Shown here in pieces: positions 14,892 through 31,384 of a stretch of DNA of 60,403 bases (position 1 is its first letter; each line of letters begins with the position of its first letter). The notes under the pieces are model-generated. The model did no database searches and was not told the origin of the DNA. It saw only the letters and a program-made list of their open reading frames with translations. A program made the position numbers and the translations under genes. This DNA is from Firmicutes bacterium CAG:582 (lineage in GTDB: Bacteria > Bacillota_I > Bacilli_A > RF39 > UBA660): positions 17,920 through 78,322 of the forward strand of contig FR884157.1 in the NCBI GenBank assembly GCA_000435515.1, given 5' to 3'.

Positions 14892-15515
14892 CTAATACAT
14901 CATATCTATAAAAGTCATTACAACGTCTTTTATACCCATTTTTTCTGCGTACAAAGATAGCTTGTTGAGATCTTTATCCTTTCTTTTTAAATACTTTCTT
15001 ACACTATATTTAATAAGTTCTAAATCTATTCTATTTTTAGATCTAATAATATCACATATACATCTTTCAATATCATATGCTTTAACTTTATTACCCATAG
15101 GAGTTTTTACTTCAATAAGGCCAAGTTCATAAATATCATTATCAACATAAAACACATTATGTTTTCTTAAGTGAATACTATTATAGTTTCTCTTTACAGT
15201 TATATCATAGACTCCATTTGGATCTTTTAAAGATAATCCATGAAAATATAAAGCTGTTATGTGAGAAAATATTACATTAGGCATACTTATACCGAAAACA
15301 TAATAATTATCAACATTATTTTTAGTATCAATATAAATACCTGATGCCACTTTTTTTATAATACATTTATCCTGCATAATTGAAAGATACATTCTGTGTA
15401 TATCAAACATATCAAGTTCTTTTGAAGTAATATATCCATTATTTCTTTTCATAAGTTCTTCAATAATTTCGATATTGCTCTTATCTTGAAACTCCTTTAT
15501 AGTTAATTTTTCCAT
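14892..15515 (-). CDS. AbiEi-like (type IV TA antitoxin / wHTH regulator family) protein
   Basis: N-terminal GYITSKEL....L......II.KVASGIYID and C-terminal ERCICDIIRS. It is a clear paralogue of ORF 25893-26501. Confidence 0.65.
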   Translation of the reverse strand: MEKLTIKEFQDKSNIEIIEELMKRNNGYITSKELDMFDIHRMYLSIMQDKCIIKKVASGIYIDTKNNVDNYYVFGISMPNVIFSHITALYFHGLSLKDPNGVYDITVKRNYNSIHLRKHNVFYVDNDIYELGLIEVKTPMGNKVKAYDIERCICDIIRSKNRIDLELIKYSVRKYLKRKDKDLNKLSLYAEKMGIKDVVMTFIDMMY

Positions 15516-15590
15516 ATAACACCTTTTGACTTTTCTACTTAAATTATATTACATTCAGTGAATAAGTCAAGTTAGAATTTATATTTGCAA

Positions 15591-15618
15591 AAAAAATACC
15601 AGATTACGCTGGTATTAT
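15591..15618. repeat. 28-bp direct repeat, copy 2 (true amidase stop codon plus terminator)
   Basis: aaaaaataccagattacGctggtattat overlaps the amidase stop at 15604-15606. On the minus strand the hairpin is followed by a T-run. Confidence 0.85.
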
Positions 15619-16362
15619 TAATTCTTTTCCTATACTCAAAACATTACTAGTTAAGTTATTAGCAACTTTTATAGCATTAACTGTTGTATTATATTTTCTT
15701 GCTATTGAATATAATGTATCTCCTGGTTTTACTATATGTGTTTTTACATCAAAACTGTTTGGTATAATAAGTTCTTGTCCAATTGATAAGGTATCTGATT
15801 TTAAATTATTAAGTTCTTTAATTTTGCTAACTGTTGTACTATATTTTTTAGCTATTGAATAAAGAGTATCACCTTTCTCAACCACATATGCATTAGTAGT
15901 TTGATCTTTCTTTTTATCGTTAACTAACAATTTTTGATTAACAGAAATCATATTGTTTTTTAAATTGTTCAAATCTTTTAACTTATCAACAGTTATTCCG
16001 TATTTTTTAGCTATTGAATATAATGTATCTCCTGATTTAACAATATAATAGTCTAGATCATCTTTGGAGTAACCAATATAATCTAAAAGAGCTTCTAAAG
16101 TTGCATATGCATAACGTTCATAATTTTTCTTTAATTTAGCTGCGTCTTTAGTATTATCCAAAAAGCCATATTCCACAATTATTGATTCATAAGGAGCTGT
16201 ATCTCTTAACATAAAATAATAATCTTTACTTGGATTAGATGTTCCACGTTTTTGATAGTATTTTCTGATTGTTTGACCATTTTTAGCAAGCTCATTTAAC
16301 ACTTTGGAGGACAAAGTTTCATTATTACGTAGAGCATAAATTACTTCGGCGCCTTCAGCACC
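15604..16362 (-). pseudogene. C-terminal fragment of N-acetylmuramoyl-L-alanine amidase (end of Amidase_3 domain plus 3 LysM repeats)
   Basis: It begins mid-domain with GAEGAEVIYALRNN. There are three repeats of Y.VK.GDTLYSIAKKY..TV..I...NNL.S..L.IGQ.L. It has no native start; the TTG in the ORF track is fortuitous. Confidence 0.85.
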
Positions 16363-16384
16363 AGGCAATAATCAAAGTGTAACG
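16363..16384. repeat. left terminal inverted repeat / att half-sites
   Basis: aggcaataatcaAAgtgtaacg is the reverse complement of 29111-29131 except for the central AA/TT. Confidence 0.85.
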
Positions 16385-16389
16385 TTTTG

Positions 16390-17241
16390 CTATTTTTTTG
16401 ATAAATTCATTATATAATTTCCAACTACTTCTTTATTTTCATTTATCTCTTGTTGTAAATTCGACCAATCATTTTTCAGTTTTTCTACTTCATCTTTATA
16501 TTTATCTGTAAAGTGTTCATTAATTTCCCAATGAAGGTAATCTTTATATTTATTAGTATAATCTTCTGTTAACTTATTTTTATCTACCCTAGAACATAAT
16601 AGTGTAAATCCCATGAATATACAAAAGGCATCTATATGGTCTTTATTATCATTAGTTAAATATATTAAAGATGAATATATTAATATTTCTAAAAAATAAG
16701 CAATTAGATAAAAATATAAAGCAAATAAATCTTCATCATTATTTTTATTAACTTCTATCATCATACTAACTACAATTGAACTATGTGTATACAAACATAA
16801 CTTTTCATAAGTTTCTTCTAATAATGATTGTAATTCATCATCCTCAAATTCTTCAAATAAAACTGGATTAATTTCTTTTAATTTAGATTTAAAATTATTT
16901 AATATTGCTGTAGGACGAGTATTTTTGCTTTTACCACATTTTTCTAAATTTTTAAATTCTTCAAATGTCTCTGTTGGGTCAAAAAATATCATCATTGCCA
17001 TCATTATTTTTTCCATACACGAACGCATCAATGTTGCAGAATCCACTAAGTCTTTTTTTCTTAAAAGTTTATAAACATTATTAATTGTATTATTAGCTTG
17101 TTGTAATAGATTAATTGTTTCAATACTAACATCTTCTGTAACCGATAAATTCTTCAGATATTTCTTTATATATCTTCTCATTGGTTTTACAAAATTAGTC
17201 TTTACTAATTGTTCAACAAATATCATATTCTTTTCTTCCAT
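16390..17241 (-). CDS. hypothetical helical protein (283 aa), downstream of the recombinase
   Basis: ORF with a good SD (aggggga-N5-ATG). No motif recognised. Confidence 0.5.
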   Translation of the reverse strand: MEEKNMIFVEQLVKTNFVKPMRRYIKKYLKNLSVTEDVSIETINLLQQANNTINNVYKLLRKKDLVDSATLMRSCMEKIMMAMMIFFDPTETFEEFKNLEKCGKSKNTRPTAILNNFKSKLKEINPVLFEEFEDDELQSLLEETYEKLCLYTHSSIVVSMMIEVNKNNDEDLFALYFYLIAYFLEILIYSSLIYLTNDNKDHIDAFCIFMGFTLLCSRVDKNKLTEDYTNKYKDYLHWEINEHFTDKYKDEVEKLKNDWSNLQQEINENKEVVGNYIMNLSKK

Positions 17242-17306
17242 TTTGTTCCCCCTATAAGTAGTTTATCTATTTCTATGTTTTCCTTGTTCCAATAGGAACA
17301 AAGTTT

Positions 17307-18896
17307 TTAAATATTATTTAATATACTAAATTTGTAAATTATTTCAATATTTTTATCTTTATCTATTACTATTTTATCAATGATAGCTTGCATTAATTCC
17401 CTAGTTGGATTTTCTAAGTCAATTAATGCTTCTATTTTATCCTCATATTTTTTTACATCATCTGTCTTATTTTGCATATCCTTTTCATCTGCCTTTAACT
17501 TCTTTATTTCAGTCCTTGATTTAGTTAACAATACTTCAGTTTCATTAGCTATTCTTTTATACATCTCATCTGATACTAATCCTCTAAACTTATCTTCATA
17601 TAGCATATCTAATTTATTAAGAAGATCTTTTTCTTTTTTTTCTAAATCAAATATTCTTGCTTCTATTTTAAGATTATTTTTCTTTCTATCTTTTAATTCA
17701 AGTGCAAGATTTGGTACATTAATCGCTTCCAAATACTTTTTACATGTGTTTTTAATAACTTCTAGTAATGCTTCTTCTAATTTATCATAAGGCATAAAAT
17801 GTGGATAACATAAATGTCTTCTTGGATCTCTTGAATACTTATTACAATTAATTGTCCAATAATCATGATTCTTTCTATAAGTAATAGTTAGTGTATTGCT
17901 GCATTCCTTACAATATAATAGATTTTCAAATAATCTTTTTTCTCTTTTAGTTATATTAGTAATATTGGTTCTTTTAACATTTCCTTGTATTTTTTCAAAA
18001 ATCATTCTATCTACAAGAGGTTCATGAGTATTTTTAACTATAATCCAATTTTCTTTTGGAACGGCCAATTTCTTTTTAGTTTTATACCCTCTTTTATACT
18101 GAATATTTTGAACCATATCACCAACATACATTTGATTTTTAAGTATCTTTTTAACAGAAGATATTGTCCAAATAGAATTATATTTACTCCTTGCGCGAGG
18201 ATTTTTTCTTTTGAGACTACTTGGTGTTTTAATTTTACTATCATTTAAATAAGTAGTTATTTCTGATAAACCAACTCCATCATTAGCCATTTCAAATATT
18301 TTCTTAACCACAGGTGCATATTCAGGATCTGGTAGTAAGTGTCCTTTATCATTAGGATCTCTCATATATCCATAACTTGGAGCACTACCAATAAATTTTC
18401 CTTTTCTTTTTTTATATTCTAATACATTTCTAATTTTAACTGAATTTTGTTTACTATAAAAATCATTACATGCAAATATAAACATTACAGAATCATTACT
18501 TGATTTTAATTTAAAATTATCATAACTTTCTTGTATAGATATAAATCTTATACCATTTTCAGGAAAATAATTTTCAACATAATAACCTGTTAGTATATGA
18601 TCTCTTCCTAATCTTGATAAATCTTTAACTATTACAAGATTTATGAGTCCTTTTTTCAAATCTTCCATCATTAGATTAAATCCCGGTCTATCAAAATCAG
18701 TACCAGAATAGCCATCATCAACATATTCTCCTACAAAGATAAAACCATTGTCCTTTACGAATTTCATTAGCATATTTCTTTGATTAAGGACACTCTCACT
18801 TTCTGATTCGTAAGATTTTCCTTGATCGGCTTCAGATAATCTTATATATATTCCTGCTTTGTAAAACTCTGGTGCTTTTACTGTATTGTTATACAT
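17307..18896 (-). CDS. large serine recombinase (integrase)
   Basis: Resolvase-type N-terminus AGIYIRLSEADQ, DGYSGTDFDRPGF and VKDLSRLGRD. It also has a recombinase domain, a Cys-rich zinc ribbon (CKECSN...NCNKY...C) and a C-terminal coiled coil. 529 aa; SD aaggag. Confidence 0.9.
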   Translation of the reverse strand: MYNNTVKAPEFYKAGIYIRLSEADQGKSYESESESVLNQRNMLMKFVKDNGFIFVGEYVDDGYSGTDFDRPGFNLMMEDLKKGLINLVIVKDLSRLGRDHILTGYYVENYFPENGIRFISIQESYDNFKLKSSNDSVMFIFACNDFYSKQNSVKIRNVLEYKKRKGKFIGSAPSYGYMRDPNDKGHLLPDPEYAPVVKKIFEMANDGVGLSEITTYLNDSKIKTPSSLKRKNPRARSKYNSIWTISSVKKILKNQMYVGDMVQNIQYKRGYKTKKKLAVPKENWIIVKNTHEPLVDRMIFEKIQGNVKRTNITNITKREKRLFENLLYCKECSNTLTITYRKNHDYWTINCNKYSRDPRRHLCYPHFMPYDKLEEALLEVIKNTCKKYLEAINVPNLALELKDRKKNNLKIEARIFDLEKKEKDLLNKLDMLYEDKFRGLVSDEMYKRIANETEVLLTKSRTEIKKLKADEKDMQNKTDDVKKYEDKIEALIDLENPTRELMQAIIDKIVIDKDKNIEIIYKFSILNNI

Positions 18897-19106
18897 TTAT
18901 ACTCCTTTCTTCTTGTATAACAAATTAAAGCCAATTATATTGTACCATAAAGAACAATATAACACCATTGTTCTACTCATTATCCATCACTCTTTTTATA
19001 TAATTAGTTATCAACAAGGTCAAATTAGGAGAATCTTTTTTAAATGTTTCTATTATATTAAACATAAGTCACCTCTTTATAGTGTATGACTTTGTTAAAC
19101 AATTAA

Positions 19107-19619
19107 TTATTCATCTCCTTTTGTTATTTCATTTATTAATGCTTCTAATTTTTTAATTTCCTCTTCACTCATAGGTTCTGGTACTGTAGGTTTACCATTC
19201 CAAGATATGATATTACCTTTATCATCATATTCTATAACAGGACCTATATTTTTTCTTATATTATTATTTTTATTATATTGTTTAAAGTTTTCTTGAATAC
19301 TAGTATTAAGATTTTCTTGTATATCCGATATTCTTTTTTTGAATGCCTCTGATATTTTAATTTTTCTTTTTTCTTTCTTAATGTGCTTTACAACAATATA
19401 ACCATATTTAGATAAACTACTTATACTCTTTGATATTGTTTGTTTACTAACACCAAATCTCTCACTAAAATACTCATTAGTAGCCCAACAATATCACATT
19501 TTCTTGCAAAGTGACAAAATATAAATTAATAGTAATCTTTCAAGTGGTGTTAAATTCTTATCTCCCAATAAACTTGTTGGAAAAACTAATTTAATAAAAG
19601 GTTCAATATCTCTTTCCAT
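19107..19619 (-). pseudogene. winged-HTH (HTH_36 / replication-initiator-like) gene interrupted by one in-frame TGA
   Basis: My own translation gives MERDIEPF...LTPLERLLLIYILSLCKKM-TGA-YCWATNEYFSERFGVSKQTISKSISSLSKYGYIVV... The frame is 171 codons long with a stop at codon 42 (19494-19496). Confidence 0.55.
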
Positions 19620-19875
19620 ATTCATTGATATAAGATTACCTTAATAGTCTATTATTTGTCAGTCTTTTAGAGCATAAGAAAAAGAACTGAACAAAGAATA
19701 GTACAGCAATTCTAGAAATACACTAGTACTTCCCTTTAATTTTGGCACTTCATTCTTGTTAAGTTCTTATTGAGAACATTGCATAAACTTCCTTTAATAA
19801 AGTCGACTTTTTCGAGCACACTCGTTGTGCCCTAATTTAATTATAGCAAATTTTTGCAAAAATTTCAATCTTTGC

Positions 19876-21297
19876 CTAAATTGAAGATGGAGATTTTTTT
19901 ATTGTTCCATCAATTTCTATGATTGAACAATTAGAAATATTAGTTTTCTTTTCTTTGTAAAATCTTTCAATTGAATTTCCGTTATCAATCTTGACTATTA
20001 CATAAAATGAGTATGTTGATTCATATCTTTTAATATATATTGGAAGTTGCTTATCATACCCATGAATTAAATTGTTTTTGCTTAATTTAAATTCAATTAA
20101 AATCTTTTCTTTCATATTGTAAATCACAAATTCTATTTGCCCATTACCAACCTTTGGTTCAAATGAATAATCATATAGTTTTAGTTGCTTTGCTACCTCT
20201 AACACTATAATAAATAATCTATGACTTGTAACTTCTTTTCTAACATTACGCCTCTTTGTCTTTGAATCGATATAATAAAGTTCCTCATTTAAGCCTAAAT
20301 CTTCTAGACATCTCTTATAAACAAATAATAATTTATTTACAAATTCCTGTAATGAATTAGATGATTTTGTTAATTCTATAAAAACTTTTTTTTGTTCTAA
20401 TACCTTTTCTCTTATTACTTCTAGGTTATTTACAATCCCTAATGGGTCATGGGAATAATCATATATTTCTGCTTCTTTCATGTTTCCCTCATAAAGTAAT
20501 TGTTCCAATAATTCCTTATTTCCTAATAAGCATTCACGCATTTTTTCTTTTTTAGTTTCATTTATAGCCGAAATATTGATATATGCTGTATTAAAAAACT
20601 CACATAAATACTCTTTGATTTTTTGATTGTATTCAGATATTGATTGTATATCATAACCATTTAAAACATCGGGTATTTCACTTAATAAATCTGCTGGTAA
20701 TAAAAATAGTAATTTGCCACTTGGCCTTTTTAAATACTTTAATCCTGTTTCATAATTTATATAATAATCTTTTATACACAATTTTTCTATCATATTGTTT
20801 GAATATAAGCATAAATCATCATATATTATTCTACATATCATATCGCTTATTCTATCAACACCAATATTTTCTTGAACTAAAAATAATAATCTATACATAG
20901 TTGGATCATCAATATCTTGATTAACTATTTCCTTCAAAGTTAACAAACATTTTTCAGCTGTTTTTCCAGTTAAACCATTGCCGTCAGTTGATTTCATACT
21001 TGTACCCAGCCCAATACCACTTGGTTCCGGAAAGTTAAAATGCTTTTTAACTGCTTTCCAATACAAATCATTACAATTCGTTTTTTTCAATAGATTTATG
21101 GTTGTTTGATAATGTTCTATAATTTTTTGCTTAGAATTTTTAAATTCAGGTATATTACATTCTGACAATAATTTTGGGTTTAAGAATAATGGAGTATCAA
21201 AATATACTAACGAATCCAAAACACCTAATTTTTCAAATATTTCAGATTTAATATTATAATAATCACTTATTTTTATTAATAGACTATCCTTATTCAT
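19876..21297 (-). CDS. PD-(D/E)xK nuclease-domain protein with QxxxY motif (RecB/Cas4/DUF4263 Shedu-like C-terminus), novel N-terminal region
   Basis: The C-terminal ~90 aa read FEPKVGNGQIEFVIY...ILIEFKLS...DKQLPIY, matching the E/D...ExK...QxxxY pattern. Strong SD aggagg. 473 aa. Confidence 0.55.
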   Translation of the reverse strand: MNKDSLLIKISDYYNIKSEIFEKLGVLDSLVYFDTPLFLNPKLLSECNIPEFKNSKQKIIEHYQTTINLLKKTNCNDLYWKAVKKHFNFPEPSGIGLGTSMKSTDGNGLTGKTAEKCLLTLKEIVNQDIDDPTMYRLLFLVQENIGVDRISDMICRIIYDDLCLYSNNMIEKLCIKDYYINYETGLKYLKRPSGKLLFLLPADLLSEIPDVLNGYDIQSISEYNQKIKEYLCEFFNTAYINISAINETKKEKMRECLLGNKELLEQLLYEGNMKEAEIYDYSHDPLGIVNNLEVIREKVLEQKKVFIELTKSSNSLQEFVNKLLFVYKRCLEDLGLNEELYYIDSKTKRRNVRKEVTSHRLFIIVLEVAKQLKLYDYSFEPKVGNGQIEFVIYNMKEKILIEFKLSKNNLIHGYDKQLPIYIKRYESTYSFYVIVKIDNGNSIERFYKEKKTNISNCSIIEIDGTIKKSPSSI

Positions 21298-21323
21298 AAA
21301 ACTCCTCCTAATATAACATATAC

Positions 21324-22835
21324 TTATAAAACATTATTACTTTCAAATAATTCTTGTCTCTTTGATAAAAACGTTTTAGTTCTAGGTGTTAATACTTCAT
21401 CTGGCAATTTATCATTATATGTTATTAGATCAAAAAACATTTTGCTTTCTTCAGTTGCATCCAATTTGATAAGAATCTTTCCATCTTTTGAATCAAAACA
21501 ATAATAGTTACTATCAAATAAACCATGATGGTTACTACATAGCCAAACTCCATTATCTCCAGAATTTGCAAGAACGTATTTTTTGTAAAATGATTCATTA
21601 CAATGTTCATTATTCTTATCAATTAAATCTTTCATTTCAGGTTTTGATATTATAGCATTAATTTCCCCAGATGCTGTATTTTTTATATCACCTACTCCCC
21701 ACAAGTGTGCAGCCTCAAGAATATGTTCAATTTCACATCCACATAAATAACACTTAGTTTGAATACCTTTTTGCCTAATATTATTCTTAAACAATTCTTG
21801 ATTTCTTAGAATATTATTACTTTTTGCCTTTTCATACTGATTTTTTTCTCTTTCAAATTGATGCAATATTTCTTCAGATGTCTCGTAGTGTATATCCAAA
21901 TTTGCTTTTTCAATTAACTTTAATATTGGGCCAGTAAAGCCAGTTGATTGTTTATAATTTTCTTTACCATCACTAAGATTATATAGTTGTGTCCCGAATA
22001 AAAATTCTAAATCTTTATTCTCTTTTTTTGCAAGTATAATTAATGTCCACATCGTAAAGAAACTATCATAACCTTCTGCAGATAATGTTTTAAAAGTATA
22101 AATATATTTTTGATTAGGAATAATATGTACTCCATCTTCATCTATTTCATCTTTTGTAATATCATAGTTTTCATCAATACATTTTAAATATGAAGGTACA
22201 TTTCCAATATTCTTCTTTGATAAATACAATATATCATTTGCAAATTTATTAAATGAGATATATTTAATATCATCATGTGTTTCTTCCATACTAAAACCTA
22301 ATTGTTCATATTCTTTAAATGATATTTCATCAAGATTTAATATATCAAATCCAATAGTCGCTAACTTTCTATAATTCATAAGATTAGACAAATTTTTAGC
22401 ATAAGTTGTATTTGTATCTAATAAATAAAAATATAATTTAACATCTTTAGCGCTATTTTTAACATCATAATAATATTCAAAAACCTTATTTAATCCCTGA
22501 AATAAATATGTATTAGAATGATAACCATCTTTGCCATACACATACTTTCCACCTACTGTTTCTACTTCTTTCTTTTTATCTTCATCAAAGTTAGTATTTG
22601 AAAATCCTATAATATATTTTAATTTATCATTCTCAAAAACAGATATTGTTCTATTATGTTTATCAACAGATCTTTGAGCTTGTATAGTGGCACCTGGTAA
22701 TTCTTCAATCGAAATCTTAATTTTGTCAGGATCAATATCGACATTATCTTTTTTATATGCCCTTTTTATAGCGTCTTTATAAAATTTTTTATAAGTCGCA
22801 TAATTACAATTAAATATTTTAGCAACTATTTCCAT
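21324..22835 (-). CDS. HNH-type restriction endonuclease (probable type IIS R subunit)
   Basis: The C-terminal CYLCGCEIEHILEAAHLWGV....NGVWLCSNHHGLFD matches the HNH_2-type motif of restriction enzymes. The large N-terminal region is presumed to be the recognition domain. I moved the start to the ATG preceded by ggagg; the ORF track begins 12 nt upstream. Confidence 0.7.
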   Translation of the reverse strand: MEIVAKIFNCNYATYKKFYKDAIKRAYKKDNVDIDPDKIKISIEELPGATIQAQRSVDKHNRTISVFENDKLKYIIGFSNTNFDEDKKKEVETVGGKYVYGKDGYHSNTYLFQGLNKVFEYYYDVKNSAKDVKLYFYLLDTNTTYAKNLSNLMNYRKLATIGFDILNLDEISFKEYEQLGFSMEETHDDIKYISFNKFANDILYLSKKNIGNVPSYLKCIDENYDITKDEIDEDGVHIIPNQKYIYTFKTLSAEGYDSFFTMWTLIILAKKENKDLEFLFGTQLYNLSDGKENYKQSTGFTGPILKLIEKANLDIHYETSEEILHQFEREKNQYEKAKSNNILRNQELFKNNIRQKGIQTKCYLCGCEIEHILEAAHLWGVGDIKNTASGEINAIISKPEMKDLIDKNNEHCNESFYKKYVLANSGDNGVWLCSNHHGLFDSNYYCFDSKDGKILIKLDATEESKMFFDLITYNDKLPDEVLTPRTKTFLSKRQELFESNNVL

Positions 22836-22847
22836 AACTACCTCCAC

Positions 22848-24725
22848 CTAATAATTTATCACTATTATCTCTTGTCTATCTTGCCTATTTCTCAATGTCA
22901 TTTTGTCATTTTTTATTACTGTATATCCATTGTCTTTAATCCATTTTTTTAAATGTTGATTTTCTATCGAATTCCTTGTCATCATATTAGATAGCATAAA
23001 TTTTATACCTCTTTTATGAAGTCTAGTTAAAAACTCCAATAATTCTTTTTCTTGTGTTTCATCCCAACCATTAAATCCTCTTTTGCCATCGTTGTAAGCC
23101 CCACATGAATTCAAATAAGGTGGATCGCAGTATACAAAATCACCCTTTTCTATATCTTTTTCAAATCTTTTATAATCCATTGATTTGAATACTATATTCA
23201 TGCTTTTTGCTTTAATAGAATACGAAACTAGCTTTTCTAACATCTCTTGATTATATCCTGAATTTCCACATGGATTGTTAAATTCCATTTTATTATTAAA
23301 TCTTATTTGATGTTCAAAACCATAACATATTAATAAATATAAATCCAAAGGATTTCTTGAACCTTTTTCCAAAGAATTATACTTATCTCTAAACAAGTTG
23401 TATGCTTCCTTATTCTTTTTTTCTAAACCATATTTTTTTATAGTTTTTTCTATGTAATTATAAGTTGTAAAAAATTGGTCATGTGCTATCTTTTCAAGTA
23501 AATCCCTAACAACCCAATTAATGTCATTATATACAACTTTATCAGCTTTAGCATTTATTGAAACTGTTCCGCCACCACCAAACAAATCATAGAAAGTGCT
23601 AATTTTTTTAGGAAAGTTGTTTTTCAATAAAGGAAGAACATCCCATTTTCCTCCTATATAATTCAATGGTGAAATATAATTTGTATCAAAATCTTTTTCT
23701 ATATAAAATAACCATTCATAATGTTCTTTATTTTTTGTGTTGTTTTTAATTTCTCTATTTACTGCACGAGTACTTTTATATTTTACAAAATTAATTTTTT
23801 TAAATTCGTAGGTACCTTCCTTTGCATATCTTTTTAAAACTTTTTCAATATATTCTTTTGACATAATCCCTGCATCACTGTAGCTAAAAATAATATGTTT
23901 AAAATTAGCATTAGCTATCAACTTTTCAAATTCTTCATGAACATAACCTTTTTTACACCATTTTGATATTTGATTTCCATTATCTCTATGTGCACCTACA
24001 CCATGAGTTTTAGGGTTATCATTTTTTGCAATTGTTTCAAGAACATGATACTGACTAATATATTGAGTTGGTGTATATGGCGGATCTAAATATAAAATAT
24101 CCCCACTTATTTTAGTTATTAAATCATTAACATCTTCAATATATACTTCATTTTGATACTTTGCATTTGGTAATGATTCTAATGGAATAAATTCCATCCT
24201 TTTTACTGATCTTGGATCCCAAATTTTTAGGAAGGCTGAATAAACACCTGCTACATTTGAAACTTTACTAACACTTTCTAATAAACTTCCTATTAAATAA
24301 TACTTTTCATATTCGTTTATTTTCTTCTCATCAAACCATACATCTATTGTATTTCTGATAAAATCAATCATTTTAGCATTTTCATCAGAAAAATATTGTC
24401 TTCCTGAAATAGTTGGTGCAAAATTATTATAGCAAAAACCTGAAACATAATTCGATGTATCTATATTATTAAAATAATCAAATGGATCAAAACCTAATTC
24501 TCTGAAAAAATCTTTATTATATTTTAACTTTCCGTTAGATATTACGTATGAAAAATATAATGTATCATTTGCTAAAATTTCAAATCTATCTTTAAAATAA
24601 TCTCCTACAGCACAAGTCCCGGAAAACAAGTCACAAAAAACTGCTCCTTTTTTGCCAATTTTTTTTTGATTAATCAATTTTTCTAATTTATCTAATAATT
24701 TTGCTTTATTGCCAATATATCTCAT
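22848..24725 (-). CDS. tandem two-domain N6-adenine DNA methyltransferase (Dam/D12 class x2, FokI-methylase-like)
   Basis: Two complete sets of Dam motifs are present: RYIGNKAKLL / FCDLFSGTCAVG / LYLDPPY, and NYIGGKWDVL / FYDLFGGGGTVS / VYCDPPY. I placed the start at the ATG after ggagg. Confidence 0.85.
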   Translation of the reverse strand: MRYIGNKAKLLDKLEKLINQKKIGKKGAVFCDLFSGTCAVGDYFKDRFEILANDTLYFSYVISNGKLKYNKDFFRELGFDPFDYFNNIDTSNYVSGFCYNNFAPTISGRQYFSDENAKMIDFIRNTIDVWFDEKKINEYEKYYLIGSLLESVSKVSNVAGVYSAFLKIWDPRSVKRMEFIPLESLPNAKYQNEVYIEDVNDLITKISGDILYLDPPYTPTQYISQYHVLETIAKNDNPKTHGVGAHRDNGNQISKWCKKGYVHEEFEKLIANANFKHIIFSYSDAGIMSKEYIEKVLKRYAKEGTYEFKKINFVKYKSTRAVNREIKNNTKNKEHYEWLFYIEKDFDTNYISPLNYIGGKWDVLPLLKNNFPKKISTFYDLFGGGGTVSINAKADKVVYNDINWVVRDLLEKIAHDQFFTTYNYIEKTIKKYGLEKKNKEAYNLFRDKYNSLEKGSRNPLDLYLLICYGFEHQIRFNNKMEFNNPCGNSGYNQEMLEKLVSYSIKAKSMNIVFKSMDYKRFEKDIEKGDFVYCDPPYLNSCGAYNDGKRGFNGWDETQEKELLEFLTRLHKRGIKFMLSNMMTRNSIENQHLKKWIKDNGYTVIKNDKMTLRNRQDRQEIIVINY

Positions 24726-24753
24726 AACTTCCTCCACTACTTGTTTTTATTGT

Positions 24754-25590
24754 TTAAAATAACTCTTTTACAATTAAATCTTGTGAATGTAAATTATTAT
24801 TTTTACCTAATAATAAATTTTCATAAAATTTAACTAAGTAACTACTTTCTTCTTTTATATTTAAATAATTATTAAAATAATTACTTCTAACTAATGCATT
24901 TCTAAAATATACTGATTTATCTTTAAATAAAGTATTATCTACTTCATATCCTAAATTAATTAAATATTTTTCAATAAATAATGCTGTAGTTCTAGTATTA
25001 CCTTCTCTAAATGGATGTACTTGCCATATACTAGATGAAAACTTAGTAATATTGTTTATTACTTCTACAACACTCATATCTTTATAATTTTTTTCTTTTT
25101 CTAAAGATATATCATATTCTAATGATTCTTTTAATGTCTTACAATCACCATAAGCTACTGAATCATTATTAAGTATTTTTTCATGTTTAGAAAAATCTAT
25201 ATTTCTAAATTCTCCTGCAAACTCATAAACATCTTGAAATAAATATTTATGAATGTATTTTAAATAATCTACAGATAATTCAAAATTATCAATTTGTAAT
25301 AATTCAACAATTCTCGTTGCTACAAAATCACATTCTAATTCATTATGATTTAATTCTTGTTTTTTATCTTTTTCTATATAATATTCTCTTAATTCTTCCT
25401 CTACTTGTTTAATAGTTAAATTACCACTTACATTTTCTTCTAATAATTTTTCTAAATATTTAGAAGGTTTTAAATTATCAACTTCTTGAAGGCCTATAGC
25501 CATATCCCATTCTAGTTGTTTTACATATCCTTCTGGTTTAATTTCTTCAATATAATCAATATTACTTGAATCCAATTCTTTTTCACTCAT
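24754..25590 (-). CDS. Fic-domain protein with N-terminal VbhA-like segment and degenerate active-site motif
   Basis: HPFREGNTRTTA compares with the canonical HxFx(D/E)GNGRxxR. The N-terminal AIGLQEVDNLKPS..L..L....SGNLT resembles the VbhA antitoxin helix (..RLEGLEP..). Confidence 0.75.
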   Translation of the reverse strand: MSEKELDSSNIDYIEEIKPEGYVKQLEWDMAIGLQEVDNLKPSKYLEKLLEENVSGNLTIKQVEEELREYYIEKDKKQELNHNELECDFVATRIVELLQIDNFELSVDYLKYIHKYLFQDVYEFAGEFRNIDFSKHEKILNNDSVAYGDCKTLKESLEYDISLEKEKNYKDMSVVEVINNITKFSSSIWQVHPFREGNTRTTALFIEKYLINLGYEVDNTLFKDKSVYFRNALVRSNYFNNYLNIKEESSYLVKFYENLLLGKNNNLHSQDLIVKELF

Positions 25591-25594
25591 TTAA

Positions 25595-25900
25595 TTAATC
25601 CCCTATCTTTTCAATATACTTTATTATCACATACTGCCTAATCATTGCCTCTAAAGTACATAACGTATCGTATTGGTTACTACTTATTTCATCATTTGGT
25701 TTAGTATAATAATTAGCAACTTCTATTTTTTCTCTATATTTATTAATAGTGTCAATAATAAACTTTTGAATTTCATCACTTGTTGTTTTGTTAGTCAACA
25801 AATAGTTTTTATATTTATTAATTTTACTTAACTCTTCAAAAATTTCCTTTTTATCTTTTTCATCATTTATACAATCCAAAAAATTCATATTGTCACTCAT
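25595..25900 (-). CDS. small acidic helical protein (101 aa), between the AbiEi-like and Fic genes
   Basis: This ORF overlaps the upstream gene by 8 nt and ends 4 nt before the Fic start. No (S/T)xxxE(G/N) motif was found. Confidence 0.5.
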   Translation of the reverse strand: MSDNMNFLDCINDEKDKKEIFEELSKINKYKNYLLTNKTTSDEIQKFIIDTINKYREKIEVANYYTKPNDEISSNQYDTLCTLEAMIRQYVIIKYIEKIGD

Positions 25901-26501
25901 ATCTTACTGCATAATCTACTAAAGTTCTAACTTTTTCATATATATTAAACACTTTAGAATACTCTAGTAATTTATCTATATCTTTATCACTACTATTAAA
26001 ATAATCGTGTAATATATTATTTTGTAATTCTAAGTCAAAATCATCACTCTTTAAAATATCACAAATACATCTTTCTGCATTATATACTTTAATTGGATTA
26101 TTAAACATATTATTAATTTCTTTAATTCCAATATTATAATATTTATCTGCGACATAGTGCACTTTATAATTACTTAATACTCTTTTCTTACTATTAACAG
26201 TTATTTCTATTTCTTCTTGCAATTCATTTATTAAACCTAGCATACTTAATGCTGTCTTATATGAATATATCGCATCAGGATATCTTTTTTGAAAAACATA
26301 TTCGTCATCAACTAATATATTGCTATCAATATATAAACCATGTGAAACTTTATTTATTAAACCATTATCAACATATTTTTTTATTAATGGTTTACTAATA
26401 TTTAGCTTTAAAAAATCTGATGTAGATATATATCCATGATTAGCATCTAAAAACTGTTTAATTTTATCTTCATTAGTCATAGAATCACCATTTACTTTCA
26501 T
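25893..26501 (-). CDS. AbiEi-like (type IV TA antitoxin / wHTH regulator family) protein
   Basis: GYISTSDFLKL......KKYVDNGLINKVSHGLYID and AERCICDILKS. It is a paralogue of 14892-15515. The true start may be the internal ATG at 26480. Confidence 0.65.
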   Translation of the reverse strand: MKVNGDSMTNEDKIKQFLDANHGYISTSDFLKLNISKPLIKKYVDNGLINKVSHGLYIDSNILVDDEYVFQKRYPDAIYSYKTALSMLGLINELQEEIEITVNSKKRVLSNYKVHYVADKYYNIGIKEINNMFNNPIKVYNAERCICDILKSDDFDLELQNNILHDYFNSSDKDIDKLLEYSKVFNIYEKVRTLVDYAVRYE

Positions 26502-26845
26502 AACAATATTATATCATTTTATTATATTTGAGTAAATAAAATTTACACAATAAAAATAATAAATTTTCAGTAACTGTCAGATACTAATTATATGGGTCTT
26601 AGGATACTCCCTAACAAGCATTAAAGGGTGTGTCAACACCATGCTTGATATATTGTACAAGACTAGTAAGTTACCTCTTGTAAGTGGTGTAATTTTTTTA
26701 TTTTTTCTCAATGTTTTTTTCAAAAAATACTATTAATTTTTATAAAAAATAGCCACCAAATTTAACAAAATCCCATAAAAAAATGCAAAAACATTAAATA
26801 TAATTAATCAAATATTTTCGCATTTTCTTTAAAACAGGTAAATTT

Positions 26846-27127
26846 TTATTTTCTAGGCAAGCTTAATAAATTATCCGATGTTGTAGTATTAGGTGTACTT
26901 TTAACATACTTTTCACCGTTAGAACTTATTGCAGGTATTACATATGGACCATAATTTGATCCTACAGTAATACTTTTAGGATTCGACTTTACATAATCAT
27001 GAATAATAGCTTTTTTATACCATCCATCTTTACTATTAGAAAGATATATTTGATCAATTTCTAGCAAGCTATTTGAATATGCACATCCATTTTTCATTTT
27101 AATTGCTGTTGCAATAAAAGTAGACAT
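26846..27127 (-). CDS. DUF3892 domain protein
   Basis: The C-terminal ...GEKYVKSTPNTTTSDNLLSLP matches the DUF3892 hallmark (..NLLSLP). I placed the start at the ATG preceded by aaaggagg; the ORF track extends 11 codons further upstream. Confidence 0.65.
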   Translation of the reverse strand: MSTFIATAIKMKNGCAYSNSLLEIDQIYLSNSKDGWYKKAIIHDYVKSNPKSITVGSNYGPYVIPAISSNGEKYVKSTPNTTTSDNLLSLPRK

Positions 27128-27202
27128 ATTTCCTCCTTTCTGTTTCTTCAAATGTTGCACTTTGAGATAAAATATGCTACAATTACTACAGGTGTCGGGC
27201 CT

Positions 27203-27233
27203 ATAGTTTCACATTCACTGAAACTATTTTTTT
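27203..27233 (+). terminator. strong hairpin plus T-run on the plus strand, inside the DUF3892 5' leader region
   Basis: atagtttca-cattcac-tgaaactat (9-bp stem) followed by tttttt. No plus-strand gene lies upstream. Confidence 0.45.
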
Positions 27234-27404
27234 ATACAAGAACTCATATACGTAAAATACTTCTCAAATACCCTTGTATGCATTCATTATATATCAATAT
27301 GCATATTTTGTCAAGTTTCAAGTCATTTCTAACTAGCAAAATATATTTTTGAATACACATTTACATTTATTTAAAATATTGTTAGTCTTTTTTGACCAAT
27401 AATA

Positions 27405-27433
27405 TTGACTTTTGTAGCAGAAGATTATATAAT
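27405..27433 (+). promoter_or_regulatory. sigma-A-type promoter of the ATPase gene
   Basis: TTGACT, 17 nt, TATAAT, then SD gaggtg 5 nt before the ATG at 27451. Confidence 0.6.
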
Positions 27434-27450
27434 TATTTTGAGGTGTAATT

Positions 27451-28686
27451 ATGCTTTTAAATATTAAGATAGACAACTATAAAGGTGTAAGTAATAATAT
27501 TAATATTTCTTGTATTGCATCAAATAAAATTAAACATTCTAATAATGATATTTCGAAAATTTCTGAAAAAACAAAGATATTAAAAAATATATGCATAATT
27601 GGTAGTAACGCAAGTGGTAAAACAAGTATATTAAATGCTATAGAAACTGTGCAAGATTTTCTTTTGTTTCCTCATAGGAAAAGCATTTCGAATAACAAAG
27701 ATTTTGATAGTTTTATAAAAAGAATGACACCAGAAGAATTAAAAAAATTTTTAATAGATATAAATACTTTAAAGCTTGGAGAACAAAATAATCTTCGTTC
27801 TAAAGATAAAAGCACTATAGTTTTAGAATTATTTATACCAAAAAGAAAAAATAATATTTCAGGTATATATACTTATACATTAATGTACAAAAGCAATTAT
27901 AAGGAATCCGGCGTTTTATTAGAAAAATTAGAGTATAAAAAAAATTTTGACAGTAAGAAAAATGAAGTTATCTGTTTAGCAAATAATATTATTGAAAGTG
28001 AAATAACTACTACTTTGTTATACCAAAACAACAATAGTAAAAATCAAGAAAAAAATATTGATGATAGAATTAAGTATTATAATACATTTTTTAATGAAAT
28101 GATAAAGCATGTATCGTATTTGGATGGTAGTGAAGGTGTAGATTTGCTTGAAGCCTTTAATAAACATGGTAATAAGTTTGTTGAACTATGTAACATTGCA
28201 GATGATAAAATAATTGATATTACACTTGATGAAAATGAAAAAAAACCAAAAATCTTATTTTGGAATTCAAAAAAAACTTTCTTAACTTTTCCTCAATTAT
28301 CAAACGGAACTAGAAAAATATTAGTTATAGGATCTATTATTCTAGATGCATTAGAAAAAAATAATTTATTGCTTATTGATGAAATAGAATTAAGCCTTCA
28401 CCCAACACTAGTAAATTTTTTAATAAATTTAAATTCTTCAAAGGATTTTAATCATTTTTCTCAATTGATATTTACAACACATTCTCCATTTGTTGCCTTT
28501 TCTATGACAAATGATCAATTATATTATATTAATAATAAAAATAACAATTATTATATATCTAGTATAAGTAACGCTATAAAAAACAATATAATTACAAAAG
28601 ATAAAAATCCTGAAAAAGCTTGGATTGAAGATTTGTTAATTAAAAATCCCGATTTAAATAAAATAAAACATTTTTTAAATAATTAA
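27451..28686 (+). CDS. ABC/SMC-like AAA ATPase (AAA_21-type, defence-island type)
   Basis: Walker A GSNASGKTS, signature-like LSNGTRK, Walker B LLLIDEIELSLHP and FTTHSP. 411 aa. Confidence 0.8.
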   Translation: MLLNIKIDNYKGVSNNINISCIASNKIKHSNNDISKISEKTKILKNICIIGSNASGKTSILNAIETVQDFLLFPHRKSISNNKDFDSFIKRMTPEELKKFLIDINTLKLGEQNNLRSKDKSTIVLELFIPKRKNNISGIYTYTLMYKSNYKESGVLLEKLEYKKNFDSKKNEVICLANNIIESEITTTLLYQNNNSKNQEKNIDDRIKYYNTFFNEMIKHVSYLDGSEGVDLLEAFNKHGNKFVELCNIADDKIIDITLDENEKKPKILFWNSKKTFLTFPQLSNGTRKILVIGSIILDALEKNNLLLIDEIELSLHPTLVNFLINLNSSKDFNHFSQLIFTTHSPFVAFSMTNDQLYYINNKNNNYYISSISNAIKNNIITKDKNPEKAWIEDLLIKNPDLNKIKHFLNN

Positions 28687-28688
28687 TA

Positions 28689-28720
28689 AAAAGATTCAGT
28701 TTAGTTTGAATCTTTTTTTG
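28689..28720. terminator. bidirectional intrinsic terminator
   Basis: aagattca-gtttagtt-tgaatctt, flanked by an A-run and a T-run. Confidence 0.6.
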
Positions 28721-28721
28721 T

Positions 28722-29072
28722 TTAATAATATTTTTCCAGTTTTAATGGATTTCTACCAGTGATTTTTAGATTATATTTTATATTTAATATCTTTTCTATG
28801 GATGGAATTATAATATCAATATCGCATCTACAATTAAAAATATCTACTGCAGAATTAATATGATTATATAGTTTACTATCATCTAAGCATCCTCTTGAAT
28901 AACTATTTGCAATATAAAATGCTACTGCATCTGGTATTACATATCTAATTATATACTCTTCAAAATTATCATAGAAAGGTAAATACTTTTCTTGAAATTC
29001 TTCATCAGATATATTTCCTTCTTCCATTAATTCTTTTTCTTTTGTGTAACTCATATTATAACTAATCTCCAT
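28722..29072 (-). CDS. hypothetical protein (116 aa) at the right end of the element
   Basis: ORF only; acidic N-terminus. It starts 39 nt inside the right inverted repeat. Confidence 0.4.
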   Translation of the reverse strand: MEISYNMSYTKEKELMEEGNISDEEFQEKYLPFYDNFEEYIIRYVIPDAVAFYIANSYSRGCLDDSKLYNHINSAVDIFNCRCDIDIIIPSIEKILNIKYNLKITGRNPLKLEKYY

Positions 29073-29110
29073 TTCTTACTATATTTTTGGCTTTAATTGT
29101 TATACATAGT

Positions 29111-29131
29111 CGTTACACAATGATTATTGCC
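29111..29131. repeat. right terminal inverted repeat / att half-sites
   Basis: cgttacacAAtgattattgcc is the reverse complement of 16364-16384 except for the central dinucleotide. Confidence 0.85.
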
Positions 29132-29395
29132 TCCTCCTGCATTTATGTGATTAGACACAACAATAACATTACTATCATTTCCAAAAGCATTCTTAATTCT
29201 ATTGACTCTTTGAGTTGGACTCAATGTTTCATCTATTTCTCTTGTAATATAAACAGGTATTCCAAGTCTTTTTAACTCATCATACATTATTTTGCTAATT
29301 GCTAAAGTCATATTTTTTTCAATTATATCATTTCCACTTGCACCATTATCAGTACCACCATGACCAGGGTCAATTATAATCTTATAATTATTCAT
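29130..29395 (-). pseudogene. N-terminal fragment of N-acetylmuramoyl-L-alanine amidase (Amidase_3)
   Basis: MNNYKIIIDPGHGGTDNGASGN..EK...L........LGIPVYITR..D..LS...R.......NVIVVSNHINAGGG, then 7 element-derived codons and a stop. SD aggtga. Confidence 0.85.
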
Positions 29396-29418
29396 AGTAT
29401 CACCTAAAATAGTGTATG

Positions 29419-29459
29419 AAAAAAAATGAAATATGGCACTTTTCATATTTCATTTTTTA
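29419..29459. terminator. bidirectional intrinsic terminator between the HEPN-like gene and the amidase start
   Basis: 10-bp stem atgaaatatg / catatttcat, flanked by A7 and T6. Confidence 0.6.
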
Positions 29460-29498
29460 TTAAGTTTTACATACCATAAATTAATATTAATATACAAT

Positions 29499-30635
29499 TT
29501 AAATTTTTTTTATTCTATCATATTTAAAATCTTTGAGCATTTCATACTTGTTAAAATATTTATACATTATATTTTTCAGAATATTTCTCAATTCTAAATT
29601 AAGATGACCTATAATCCAATTTTCTTCCTTATATTCACCATAATCAAATGTAAAATTTTTCAAATAGTTCTTTTTATACTTAAATAACTCTTTTTTTAAA
29701 CTATTAAAATTACCATGAATTAATCTTGATCTAATATCATATATAAGTGTAGAAAAATTTTCTACATCAATTTCGTTTTCAAATTCTATTGATAGATCAT
29801 CGACAAAAAATTTTAATTTATCTTTTAATTGGCTTCTTGTATCTCTTACTGGGTTAATAATCAGCATTTCAATTAATAAAACATAATTTAACAAAGAATA
29901 TTGACTTTTATCTGCTGATAGCAAAATTTCTGCAATAAAATCCAGTTTAAAATATTCATCAGAGTTAACAACAATTTTGTCATATTTTTTGCCAAATTTT
30001 ATTAATCCATTTATTTTATTAGCAAATTCTGAATTGTAATTTTTATAATATTTATAAAATATATAAGATTGGTTTTCTTCTCTACTTTTGTATGTTTTCT
30101 GCATAAGCATATTAAATATATAACTATCCGGCCAATCAGAGCAACCAGTATTAAACAAGATGTCAAGGTCATTTCTCTTTTTACCTTTACTTCTCTCCAC
30201 AAAATTATATAAAAATAAAAATTTATATTCTATATCATATTCATTAGTAGGATTAATTAATGGCGTTTTATGAAGTTCCTTAGAGAGTTCATCTTCTTTA
30301 CACTCAGAGAAAATTTCATCACCCACTAGTAGCGAACTTTCAGAATATTCATAGTCAAATACAATTATATATTTTGAAATTAATGATAATATTTGAGCTG
30401 CAGTTAATTTAGAAATATCTTTTTTTAATAATCCTGAATAGTATTCATCATTTAAACTACTTAATATTTTTTTCCTAAAATGGTAATCTTTTTCAAAATT
30501 TCGATGATAATCTTCATATAAAAGATACTTAATTTCTTGTCTAAAAAATTTACAATCAGCATTTTTTATATATAAGCCTAACCTTTTAGAAATGCATATA
30601 GGATTTATTTTTTTTAAGCATTCTATTCCCAACAT
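29499..30635 (-). CDS. hypothetical protein with C-terminal HEPN-like Rx4H motif (Abi/Apea-like)
   Basis: 378 aa. YDIRSRLIHGNF fits the HEPN R-x4-H motif in a helical context. Strong SD aggagg. Confidence 0.5.
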   Translation of the reverse strand: MLGIECLKKINPICISKRLGLYIKNADCKFFRQEIKYLLYEDYHRNFEKDYHFRKKILSSLNDEYYSGLLKKDISKLTAAQILSLISKYIIVFDYEYSESSLLVGDEIFSECKEDELSKELHKTPLINPTNEYDIEYKFLFLYNFVERSKGKKRNDLDILFNTGCSDWPDSYIFNMLMQKTYKSREENQSYIFYKYYKNYNSEFANKINGLIKFGKKYDKIVVNSDEYFKLDFIAEILLSADKSQYSLLNYVLLIEMLIINPVRDTRSQLKDKLKFFVDDLSIEFENEIDVENFSTLIYDIRSRLIHGNFNSLKKELFKYKKNYLKNFTFDYGEYKEENWIIGHLNLELRNILKNIMYKYFNKYEMLKDFKYDRIKKI

Positions 30636-30749
30636 AATAGAAACCTCCTAATAAAAATTATAGCATAATAAAAGATACTTTTTTAGCAACATTTCTTAAA
30701 GCCTTTATGCATTTTATTTGTTAAATTTATTGCTTTTTCATTTTTCTTT

Positions 30750-31384
30750 TTATTTTAAACTATCAGTGAATGTTTTTATGTCCGCTTCACTCGCACTTGA
30801 TGAAAATCTTTGACCTGTTTTCCAATTTCCACCATTTGCCATCTCTTCAAGCAACTTTTCACTTTGACCAAGTCCACTTGATGCTGAAGTACAAAATGGA
30901 ATAATTGTTTTACCAGTAAAATCATTATCTTTTACAAAATTATTTACTGGCCAAGCAGCTATTCCCCACCAAATTGGATATCCAATTAAAACTGTATCAT
31001 AACTATCTCAGTTATCAACTTTAGTATTAGTTAATTCTACATTTCTTAAAGATTCATCATTATGTTCTTTTGAAACTCTTGAATTTTCATTTGACCAATT
31101 CAAATCATCTGATGTATAAATATCCTTTGGTATAATTTCAAATATGTCGGCATTTAAATTATTAGCTATCTTTTTAGCAACATCTTCAGTATGACTTTGA
31201 GCAGAATAATAAACAACCAAATTTTTTCCATTAGATGTATTAGTATTACTATCATTTATAATTGTCTGTTATTATTTTCAGCTGCATTATCATTTACTTT
31301 GTTTTTATTAATTACAAAATAAACTCCAACTCCCATCCCAATTACTATTAATATTACTATAATTATTGATAAAACTTTTTTCAT
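30750..31384 (-). pseudogene. membrane-anchored flavodoxin-family gene, disrupted
   Basis: An N-terminal anchor ORF (MKKVLSIIIVILIV...) is out of frame with the flavodoxin core (VVYYSAQSHTEDVAKKIA...). An in-frame TGA at 31008-31010 precedes DSYDTVLIGYPIWWG... Confidence 0.7.

Follow-up and report, generated by a model that had tools for sequence, protein, structure and literature searches.

Exchangeable defence modules probably lie behind a conserved AbiEi–Fic gene pair on a mobile element of uncultured gut Bacilli

The stretch analysed in this study, called the window, comprises 60,403 nucleotides of Firmicutes bacterium CAG:582 (assembly GCA_000435515.1, contig FR884157.1, positions 17,920 to 78,322). 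It carries a block of six successive genes on the minus strand. In gene order, these encode a regulator or antitoxin of the AbiEi family, a small protein of 101 aa, a Fic protein, a tandem adenine methyltransferase, an HNH endonuclease and a DUF8370/DUF8371 nuclease (Table 1). An earlier note, made from the letters alone, had described the six genes with their coordinates, the short gaps between them and the families of the parts. The open reading frame (ORF) calls bore out the genes and coordinates, and the recomputed gaps had the same values: −8, 4, 16 or 28, 0 or 12, and 26 nt in order, where the alternatives reflect the choice of start codon. Gene callers take the ATG starts, which give a methyltransferase of 625 aa, an HNH protein of 503 aa and a small protein of 97 aa. 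The family identities were upheld by Pfam and PADLOC matches, motifs and conserved residues. An AbiEi-type regulator does head the block, as the note had said, and it was found together with a conserved promoter and a putative operator.

The block is densely packed. Its five successive junctions of at most 30 nt are unmatched in the window, where the next-best run has three and 44% of all same-strand junctions are this short. The shared orientation is the norm here, with 48 of the 55 ORFs of the window on the minus strand. The earlier note had seen no hairpin followed by a T-run between the genes. A scan of positions 19000-27500 agreed, with 0 terminator-like sites against 1.0 ± 0.9 in the shuffled control sequence; the adjoining 19 kb held only 3. 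The missing terminators are weak evidence, because the scan detects few in sequence of 25% GC.

Table 1. Features of the six-gene block and of the element that carries it, in window coordinates. Segments marked BLASTN were delimited against sister elements.
Feature	Position	Strand	Details
Amidase_3 5' fragment	29093-29446	-	left end of element; ends ...SNHINAGGG
AbiL-like AAA_21 ATPase	27451-28686	+	in slot 1
DUF3892 gene	26846-27160	-	in slot 1
Conserved non-coding element	26549-26690	-	~100-140 nt; three predicted hairpins; upstream of AbiEi promoter
AbiEi promoter	26490-26537	-	-35 TTTACT 26536-26531; extended -10 TG-n-TATAAT ending 26508; promoter scan
AbiEi-family winged-helix regulator/antitoxin	25893-26480	-	195 aa from likely start; ORF 25893-26501
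Lineage-specific 287-bp insertion	25609-25895	-	carries the 97/101-aa ORF 25595-25900
Fic2-type Fic, putative toxin	24754-25590	-	278 aa; motif HPFREGNTRTTA; backbone gene
Tandem D12-class (Dam-family) N6-adenine DNA methyltransferase	22848-24725	-	625 aa; first cargo gene; ORF 22848-24737
HNH_2 endonuclease, putative restriction enzyme	21324-22835	-	503 aa; HNH_2 at residues 366-452; ORF 21324-22847
DUF8370/DUF8371 protein (Pfam PF28123/PF28130)	19876-21297	-	473 aa; C-terminal PD-(D/E)xK/QxxxY nuclease domain
Promoter TTGAAA-17-TGCTATAAT	19840-19868	-	starts conserved HTH_36/recombinase block; right edge of cargo slot
HTH_36 backbone gene	19110-19619	-	in-frame TGA in this lineage
Large serine recombinase	17307-18896	-	Pfam Resolvase, Recombinase, Zn_ribbon_recom; kept in sister elements
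Amidase 3' part with LysM repeats	15604-16368		starts ...GAEGAEVIY
Conserved left block	29467-28721		BLASTN
Variable slot 1	28720-26751		BLASTN
Conserved AbiEi block with its upstream non-coding region	26750-25896		BLASTN
Insertion with the 101-aa gene	25895-25609		BLASTN
Conserved Fic	25608-24754		BLASTN
Variable slot 2 (cargo)	24753-19874		BLASTN
Conserved right block	from 19873		BLASTN

The block was compared with about 200 related loci. It sits in an integrative element of ~12.7 kb (roughly window 16369-29110) with a large serine recombinase. The element splits an Amidase_3/LysM cell-wall hydrolase gene within the conserved region ...NAGGG/GAEV.... More than 24 metagenome contigs carry identical copies of the element, and their host labels are only 'Bacilli bacterium' or 'uncultured Bacillales'. 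BLASTN against sister elements resolved it into alternating conserved and variable segments. The second variable slot opens immediately past the Fic stop codon, where the sequences part, and reaches as far as the promoter of the HTH_36/recombinase block. The first cargo gene follows at a distance of 8-51 nt from that stop codon; in the sister elements that share the same Fic the distance is 15-28 nt. A strong ribosome-binding site precedes it each time.

At least seven different cargo sets were found behind the same type of Fic protein, a count drawn from a few dozen loci and not from a census. The tandem Dam methylase, HNH and DUF8370 genes form the cargo of the window and of loci L019, L122 and L139. 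In L105, which has another flanking context, the same methylase and HNH genes are followed by a Gabija-like OLD/UvrD pair. The other sets are type III Mod and Res genes, of two kinds; a MazG-like gene with AIPR and a Schlafen-type helicase; a MazG-like gene with a Schlafen helicase and Mrr-STAND; HNH_2 with two C5 methylases; and a Schlafen helicase with an N6_N4 methylase and a DndB-like gene. One identical Fic protein (P0209) heads three different cargo sets. Conservation of gene order, which the earlier note had proposed as a check, was thus found in part: the sub-blocks AbiEi–Fic, methylase–HNH and methylase–HNH–DUF8370 recur, and the full order of six genes was seen only in near-identical copies of this element, not in diverged relatives. 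We believe that the block probably consists of exchangeable defence modules behind a conserved AbiEi–Fic pair on a mobile element, and is not an obligate machine of six parts. The case that the note had named as refuting its proposal, an accretion of defence modules, largely describes what was found, with the qualification that the accretion takes place in one defined slot behind AbiEi–Fic.

The AbiEi protein matches the PADLOC profile PDLC02225 (8e-54, residues 7-196 on profile positions 3-192 of 198). Against Pfam AbiEi_4 it reached 23.3 bits, slightly under the cut-off of 25 bits. The second ATG, at 26480 with a GGTGA ribosome-binding site, is the more likely start, because the first ATG lies only ~7 nt past the −10 box and the homologues in L107 and L111 begin at the second. 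Homologues with 62-95% identity hold the same position in sister elements. The promoter has the sigma-70 pattern TTTACT-17-TGnTATAAT and is flanked by an inverted repeat, ATTTACT-N33-AGTAAAT, which brackets the −35 box and the transcript start and is a putative operator. Promoter and repeat arms are invariant in 7 loci, one of which is a canonical AbiEi–AbiEii locus, and the window contains a single instance of the pattern where 0.04 would be expected. AbiEi pairs with canonical AbiEii in homologues at 58% and about 30% identity, and the locus at 58% has the same promoter and repeat. At 69% identity, in a further lineage, a GmrSD-type enzyme and a type I restriction–modification (R-M) system lie directly downstream, and there is no Fic. 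In the window, Pfam and PADLOC gave no match to AbiEii (DUF1814/PF08843) among the six proteins or their neighbours.

A conserved non-coding element in front of the AbiEi promoter accompanies abiEi irrespective of the genes that precede it, and it has no match in Rfam. Among the fetched loci, 37 carry it in the orientation of the window and 10, from diverged lineages, carry it inverted. An active invertible switch is unsupported, since opposite orientations occur only between diverged alleles (~83% DNA identity). Just beyond the element there is an AbiEi paralogue (14892-15515, minus strand, PADLOC 5e-55), and the place behind it where AbiEii would be is taken by a Bro-N/PDC-S13 gene (13928-14779, minus strand). 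The promoter of the paralogue has the same layout, with one half-site over the −35 box and an inverted half-site before the ribosome-binding site, and its half-sites are TTGACTT and AAGTCAA.

The Fic protein matches Pfam (3e-12) and PADLOC PDC-S72 (2e-80). Its family is very abundant and highly conserved. Compared with VbhT (HPFREGNGRTLR), its core motif has Gly changed to Thr and the last Arg changed to Ala, so that the canonical HxFx(D/E)GNGRxxR does not fit; the nearest solved relatives are Fic and VbhT. The form HPFxEGNTRTTA is retained among homologues down to 40% identity, and the motif is therefore a maintained variant and not a product of decay. A plasmid Fic of Campylobacter fetus is 42% identical over 257 residues, has the motif HPFREGNTRTIA and follows a class II Fic gene. 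C. fetus Fic2 carries the core-motif changes G to T and R to A (PMC5651007). It inhibits the growth of E. coli and lowers the level of 70S ribosomes; it is neutralised by Fic1 or Fti3, and a solitary fic2 allele was impaired (PMC5651007). The inhibitory (S/T)xxxE(G/N) helix motif was found in none of the 101-aa protein, AbiEi and Fic of the window.

From these features, we propose the following model. AbiEi would repress its own promoter and act as regulator or antitoxin for Fic. Fic would be a growth-arresting toxin which, by analogy with C. fetus Fic2, does not AMPylate and disturbs ribosomes. Together, AbiEi and Fic would serve the element as a module for addiction or abortive infection. 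Promoter-less defence cassettes would be swapped in the slot between the Fic stop codon and the HTH_36/recombinase promoter, and the cargo of the window would be an R-M pair plus an independent DUF8370/8371 nuclease of the PD-(D/E)xK type, with an expected activity against phages. Transcription from the AbiEi promoter probably covers all six genes, which would hence share regulation and mobility. This is likely because the space between the Fic stop and the first cargo gene is too short for a promoter. As to the single operon suggested in the earlier note, co-transcription is plausible, in that the short leader in front of each cargo set has room only for a ribosome-binding site; the dedicated six-gene system was not supported.

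Several observations weigh against this model. Promoter-like matches in the scan were as common as in shuffled sequence, and promoters may lie within coding regions of the block, which would speak against a single transcript. The neighbourhood of Fic was sampled in 78 metagenome loci with Fic proteins 75-97% identical to that of the window. AbiEi lies upstream in 8 of them, all with Fic identity of at least 88%; in the other 70, where the Fic2-type genes have 75-87% identity, Fic has no AbiEi and its neighbours are varied, many of them of defence type. A fixed Fic partner outside this element family was ruled out on the same grounds. Homologues on plasmids are likewise solitary. Because Fic2-type genes commonly occur without AbiEi, either Fic is not strongly toxic when alone or AbiEi is not its antitoxin. 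Conservation is also unequal: Fic is 86-100% identical and AbiEi 62-95%, with AbiEi alleles shuffled relative to Fic (L139 included). This is unlike a co-evolving pair of proteins. Finally, AbiEi–Fic precedes R-M genes in most variants, and AbiEi–Fic–methylase–HNH moves as one piece into the different context of L105. Some functional link of AbiEi–Fic to restriction is thus possible.

Such a link is the core of an alternative in which AbiEi–Fic guards or backs up whichever restriction cargo lies downstream. Fic would then be a suicide or dormancy effector, freed when phage anti-restriction factors or host shut-off disable restriction or deplete AbiEi. The R-M systems directly behind the pair (type IIS-like, type III twice, type II with C5 methylases) and the piece recurring in L105 suit this idea. 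Precedents are PrrC with EcoprrI, and DarTG2 within a type I R-M operon under RptR. The latter is an island of seven ORFs in which a toxin–antitoxin (TA) pair lies inside the R-M operon under one repressed promoter (PMC12255303). However, the same Fic also heads the MazG-like/AIPR/Schlafen helicase cargo, which has no restriction system, most Fic2-type genes lie among unrelated neighbours, and no sign of co-evolution between Fic and cargo was seen. We therefore consider this guard role unlikely.

AbiEi might also be a mere transcription factor of the operon, and Fic a stand-alone defence or regulatory enzyme that does not AMPylate and needs no antitoxin. PADLOC lists this Fic as a single-gene candidate, which would fit, as would its solitary state in most metagenome loci and on plasmids. 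The glycine and arginine of AMP transfer are absent from a motif that is nevertheless strictly conserved, and this clade of AbiEi heads operons with unrelated effectors. Against this, C. fetus Fic2, whose motif is altered in the same way, is a toxin in E. coli that depends on Fic1 or Fti3 for its neutralisation (PMC5651007), and the spacing between AbiEi and Fic is constant across the family at 11-13 nt. We regard a stand-alone Fic as a more doubtful explanation than the guard role. The model of the earlier note, in which the six genes are one co-evolved, layered and mutually dependent system of defence or addiction, is highly improbable and appears largely refuted by the comparison of loci: the tight packing, the one upstream promoter, the lack of a terminator-like site inside and the identity of the block across the metagenome contigs speak for it, but those contigs are copies of one element, each part occurs without the rest, the same Fic heads the whole range of cargo sets, and the 101-aa gene (absent in all other lineages) and the nuclease (replaced in L105) are dispensable add-ons.

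The preferred reading, that of exchangeable modules behind AbiEi–Fic, can be extended in a tentative way, although we would not expect the whole extension to hold. AbiEi of gut Firmicutes would be a general head of defence operons, comparable to BrxR and RptR in other settings, and AbiEi–Fic2 would be an undescribed type of TA or abortive-infection system with AbiEi in control of a Fic toxin that targets ribosomes and does not AMPylate. The 3' end of the operon would then be an integron-like acquisition site held by addiction, where captured promoter-less cassettes are expressed from the AbiEi promoter.

The block resembles several known systems and differs from each. Like AbiE type IV TA systems, it has a full-length AbiEi with a winged helix and an inverted repeat about the promoter, as expected of an autoregulator. 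It lies outside the AbiE family because there is no AbiEii nucleotidyltransferase; the partner is a Fic2-type Fic, and GmrSD or Bro-N in relatives. With its non-canonical motif and no antitoxin that bears the inhibitory helix, it also lies outside the class I FicT/VbhT modules. With C. fetus Fic1/Fic2, the Fic of the window shares the Fic2 changes (HPFREGNTRxxA) and the lack of the inhibitory helix motif (PMC5651007). In contrast to that pair, AbiEi (plus the 101-aa insert) lies upstream in place of a class II Fic1, and the toxin is a putative one here. In the RptR-DarTG2-type I R-M island of enteropathogenic E. coli, a small DNA-binding regulator likewise heads an operon of TA-type and R-M genes (PMC12255303). 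The BrxR/WYL regulators similarly stand, as one family, beside varied defence systems (PMC9122601). Unlike in the RptR and BrxR systems, the downstream genes here are exchangeable cargo, and the regulator fold, the toxin (Fic and not DarT) and the host phylum differ.

The P2/P4 satellite hotspots and hotspot 5 of the SXT integrative and conjugative element are known defence hotspots of mobile elements. As in those, a conserved backbone has one or two fixed positions at which systems are replaced between near-identical elements. The carrier differs, being a small serine-recombinase element in an amidase gene of gut Bacilli, and the slot differs in being the 3' end of the AbiEi–Fic operon, with cargo that is apparently promoter-less. 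Defence hotspots have also been described in islands of Pseudomonas (PMC12629846). The earlier note had not recognised the combination as a described system, and the literature search agreed with it, in that no account was found of an AbiEi–Fic pairing, an AbiEi–Fic–R-M arrangement, PDC-S72, or an amidase-targeting element family with such a slot.

If the model of exchangeable modules is true, uncultured gut Bacilli have a compact natural system for swapping defences, with one sharp-edged slot and at least seven cargo sets. AbiEi would be widened from an antitoxin bound to AbiEii into a regulator with effectors of the Fic2, GmrSD and Bro-N types, and annotation tools that demand AbiEii would have to allow for other partners. 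Three uncharacterised proteins would gain a defence context: the Fic2-type PDC-S72, the DUF8370/8371 nuclease and the MAG4270-like HNH protein. The model would also be a caution for genome scans, because tight packing of defence genes can arise by accretion of cassettes behind a shared promoter and need not mean a mechanism of several components.

The methylase and HNH proteins form the first part of the cargo. The methylase matches Pfam MethyltransfD12 in two stretches and PADLOC MTase_II over its full length (3e-181). It has catalytic DPPY at residues 214 and 534, and motifs of the S-adenosylmethionine-binding type at 34 (FSGTCAVG) and 382 (FGGGG). The HNH_2 domain retains its H...N...H residues. 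On the Pusillibacter plasmid pMM59_01, a tandem adenine methylase with 43% identity is overlapped at its end by an HNH homologue with 26% identity, which is annotated as 'MAG4270 family putative restriction endonuclease'. By this comparison, methylase and HNH form a conserved pair, a putative R-M system of type II that is probably IIS-like. An asymmetric site would be methylated on both strands by the fused double methylase, and DNA without this mark would be cleaved by the HNH enzyme. FokI-type organisation is that of a type IIS R-M system with a fused double methylase. The likeness lies in the fusion of two complete D12-class adenine methylase domains into a single polypeptide and in the adjoining endonuclease gene; the difference is that the endonuclease here is an HNH_2 protein without a solved relative. 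A sequence search of solved structures gave nothing for the HNH protein or for the DUF8370 profile.

The last gene of the block encodes a protein in which both DUF8370 and DUF8371 were matched by precomputed Pfam assignments. Among 21 sequences, down to about 20% identity, E380, G386, E402-x-K404 and Q417-xxx-Y421 are invariant. Its AlphaFold2 model has a pLDDT (predicted local distance difference test) of 89. The PDB matches of the model are weak (Foldseek E 1.6e-3 or worse), and the better-ranked ones are mostly PD-(D/E)xK nucleases, namely Bax1, Can2, McrC, DdmD and Ecl18kI. Relatives of DUF8370 occur in 218 genome stretches from many phyla, with mixed defence-island genes as neighbours. 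On either side, the roughly 130 neighbours within two genes were spread over more than 120 Pfam families, none with above 6 members, which rules out a fixed partner. Homologues at 62-66% identity occur without any of the other five genes. Homology with L105 breaks off behind the HNH gene, at 21320, which makes the DUF8370 gene a separate sub-cassette. In L023 (8466-13100), a metagenome-assembled genome of Bacillota, a DUF8370 gene with 41% identity lies behind another R-M pair, made up of a C5 methylase and a 473-aa putative endonuclease, and ~770 bp downstream of it is a solitary Fic2-type gene with 76% identity. The same families thus co-locate again there, in another order and with no AbiEi.

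The 101-aa gene is, by comparison of sister loci, a recent insertion between AbiEi and Fic that belongs to this lineage only. In L019, L105, L116, L119, L121, L122 and L125, homology skips from 25896 to 25608 and the insertion is missing. The insertion is bordered by AGATATGAG and AGATAGGGG, and most AbiEi homologues have the 200-aa form without it. The protein family is small, with 34 representatives, and its homologues occupy three unrelated contexts. AlphaFold2 predicts a helical bundle for the protein, and the PDB gave no match to it. A VbhA-like Fic antitoxin was considered and rejected, since the inhibitory motif is lacking and nearly all sister elements with a 94-100% identical Fic do not have the protein. 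The earlier note had singled it out as acidic, which does not set it apart: its isoelectric point is 4.9, against 4.8 for Fic and 5.45 for AbiEi. NCBIfam gave no match for this protein, AbiEi, the HNH protein or the DUF8370 protein.

Outside the block, the first variable slot holds other genes in sister elements: a 1292-aa protein, a 761-aa protein, an OLD-like ATPase, or a 902-aa protein plus a helicase. A DUF5677 gene also lies between the two amidase parts of the window. No near-identical DNA was found in plasmids or phages, and Rfam gave nothing in 15000-31000 beyond a sub-threshold chance match. The HTH_36 gene is intact in sister elements, at 172-176 aa. In this lineage it is probably a pseudogene, because the genome uses TGG for Trp, and its interruption may affect the mobility of the element. 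An alternative code with TGA as Trp was ruled out: Trp is always TGG, and in-frame TGA is absent from the six genes. The split-amidase layout resembles the gene-intervening 'skin'-type elements of spore formers, and sister elements interrupt the same amidase gene in genomes with differing flanks. In L002, L012 and L014, a second large serine recombinase (534 aa, DUF4368) with helix-turn-helix and Mob-type genes adjoins the amidase 5' fragment, which suggests a tandem or nested insertion at the same site.

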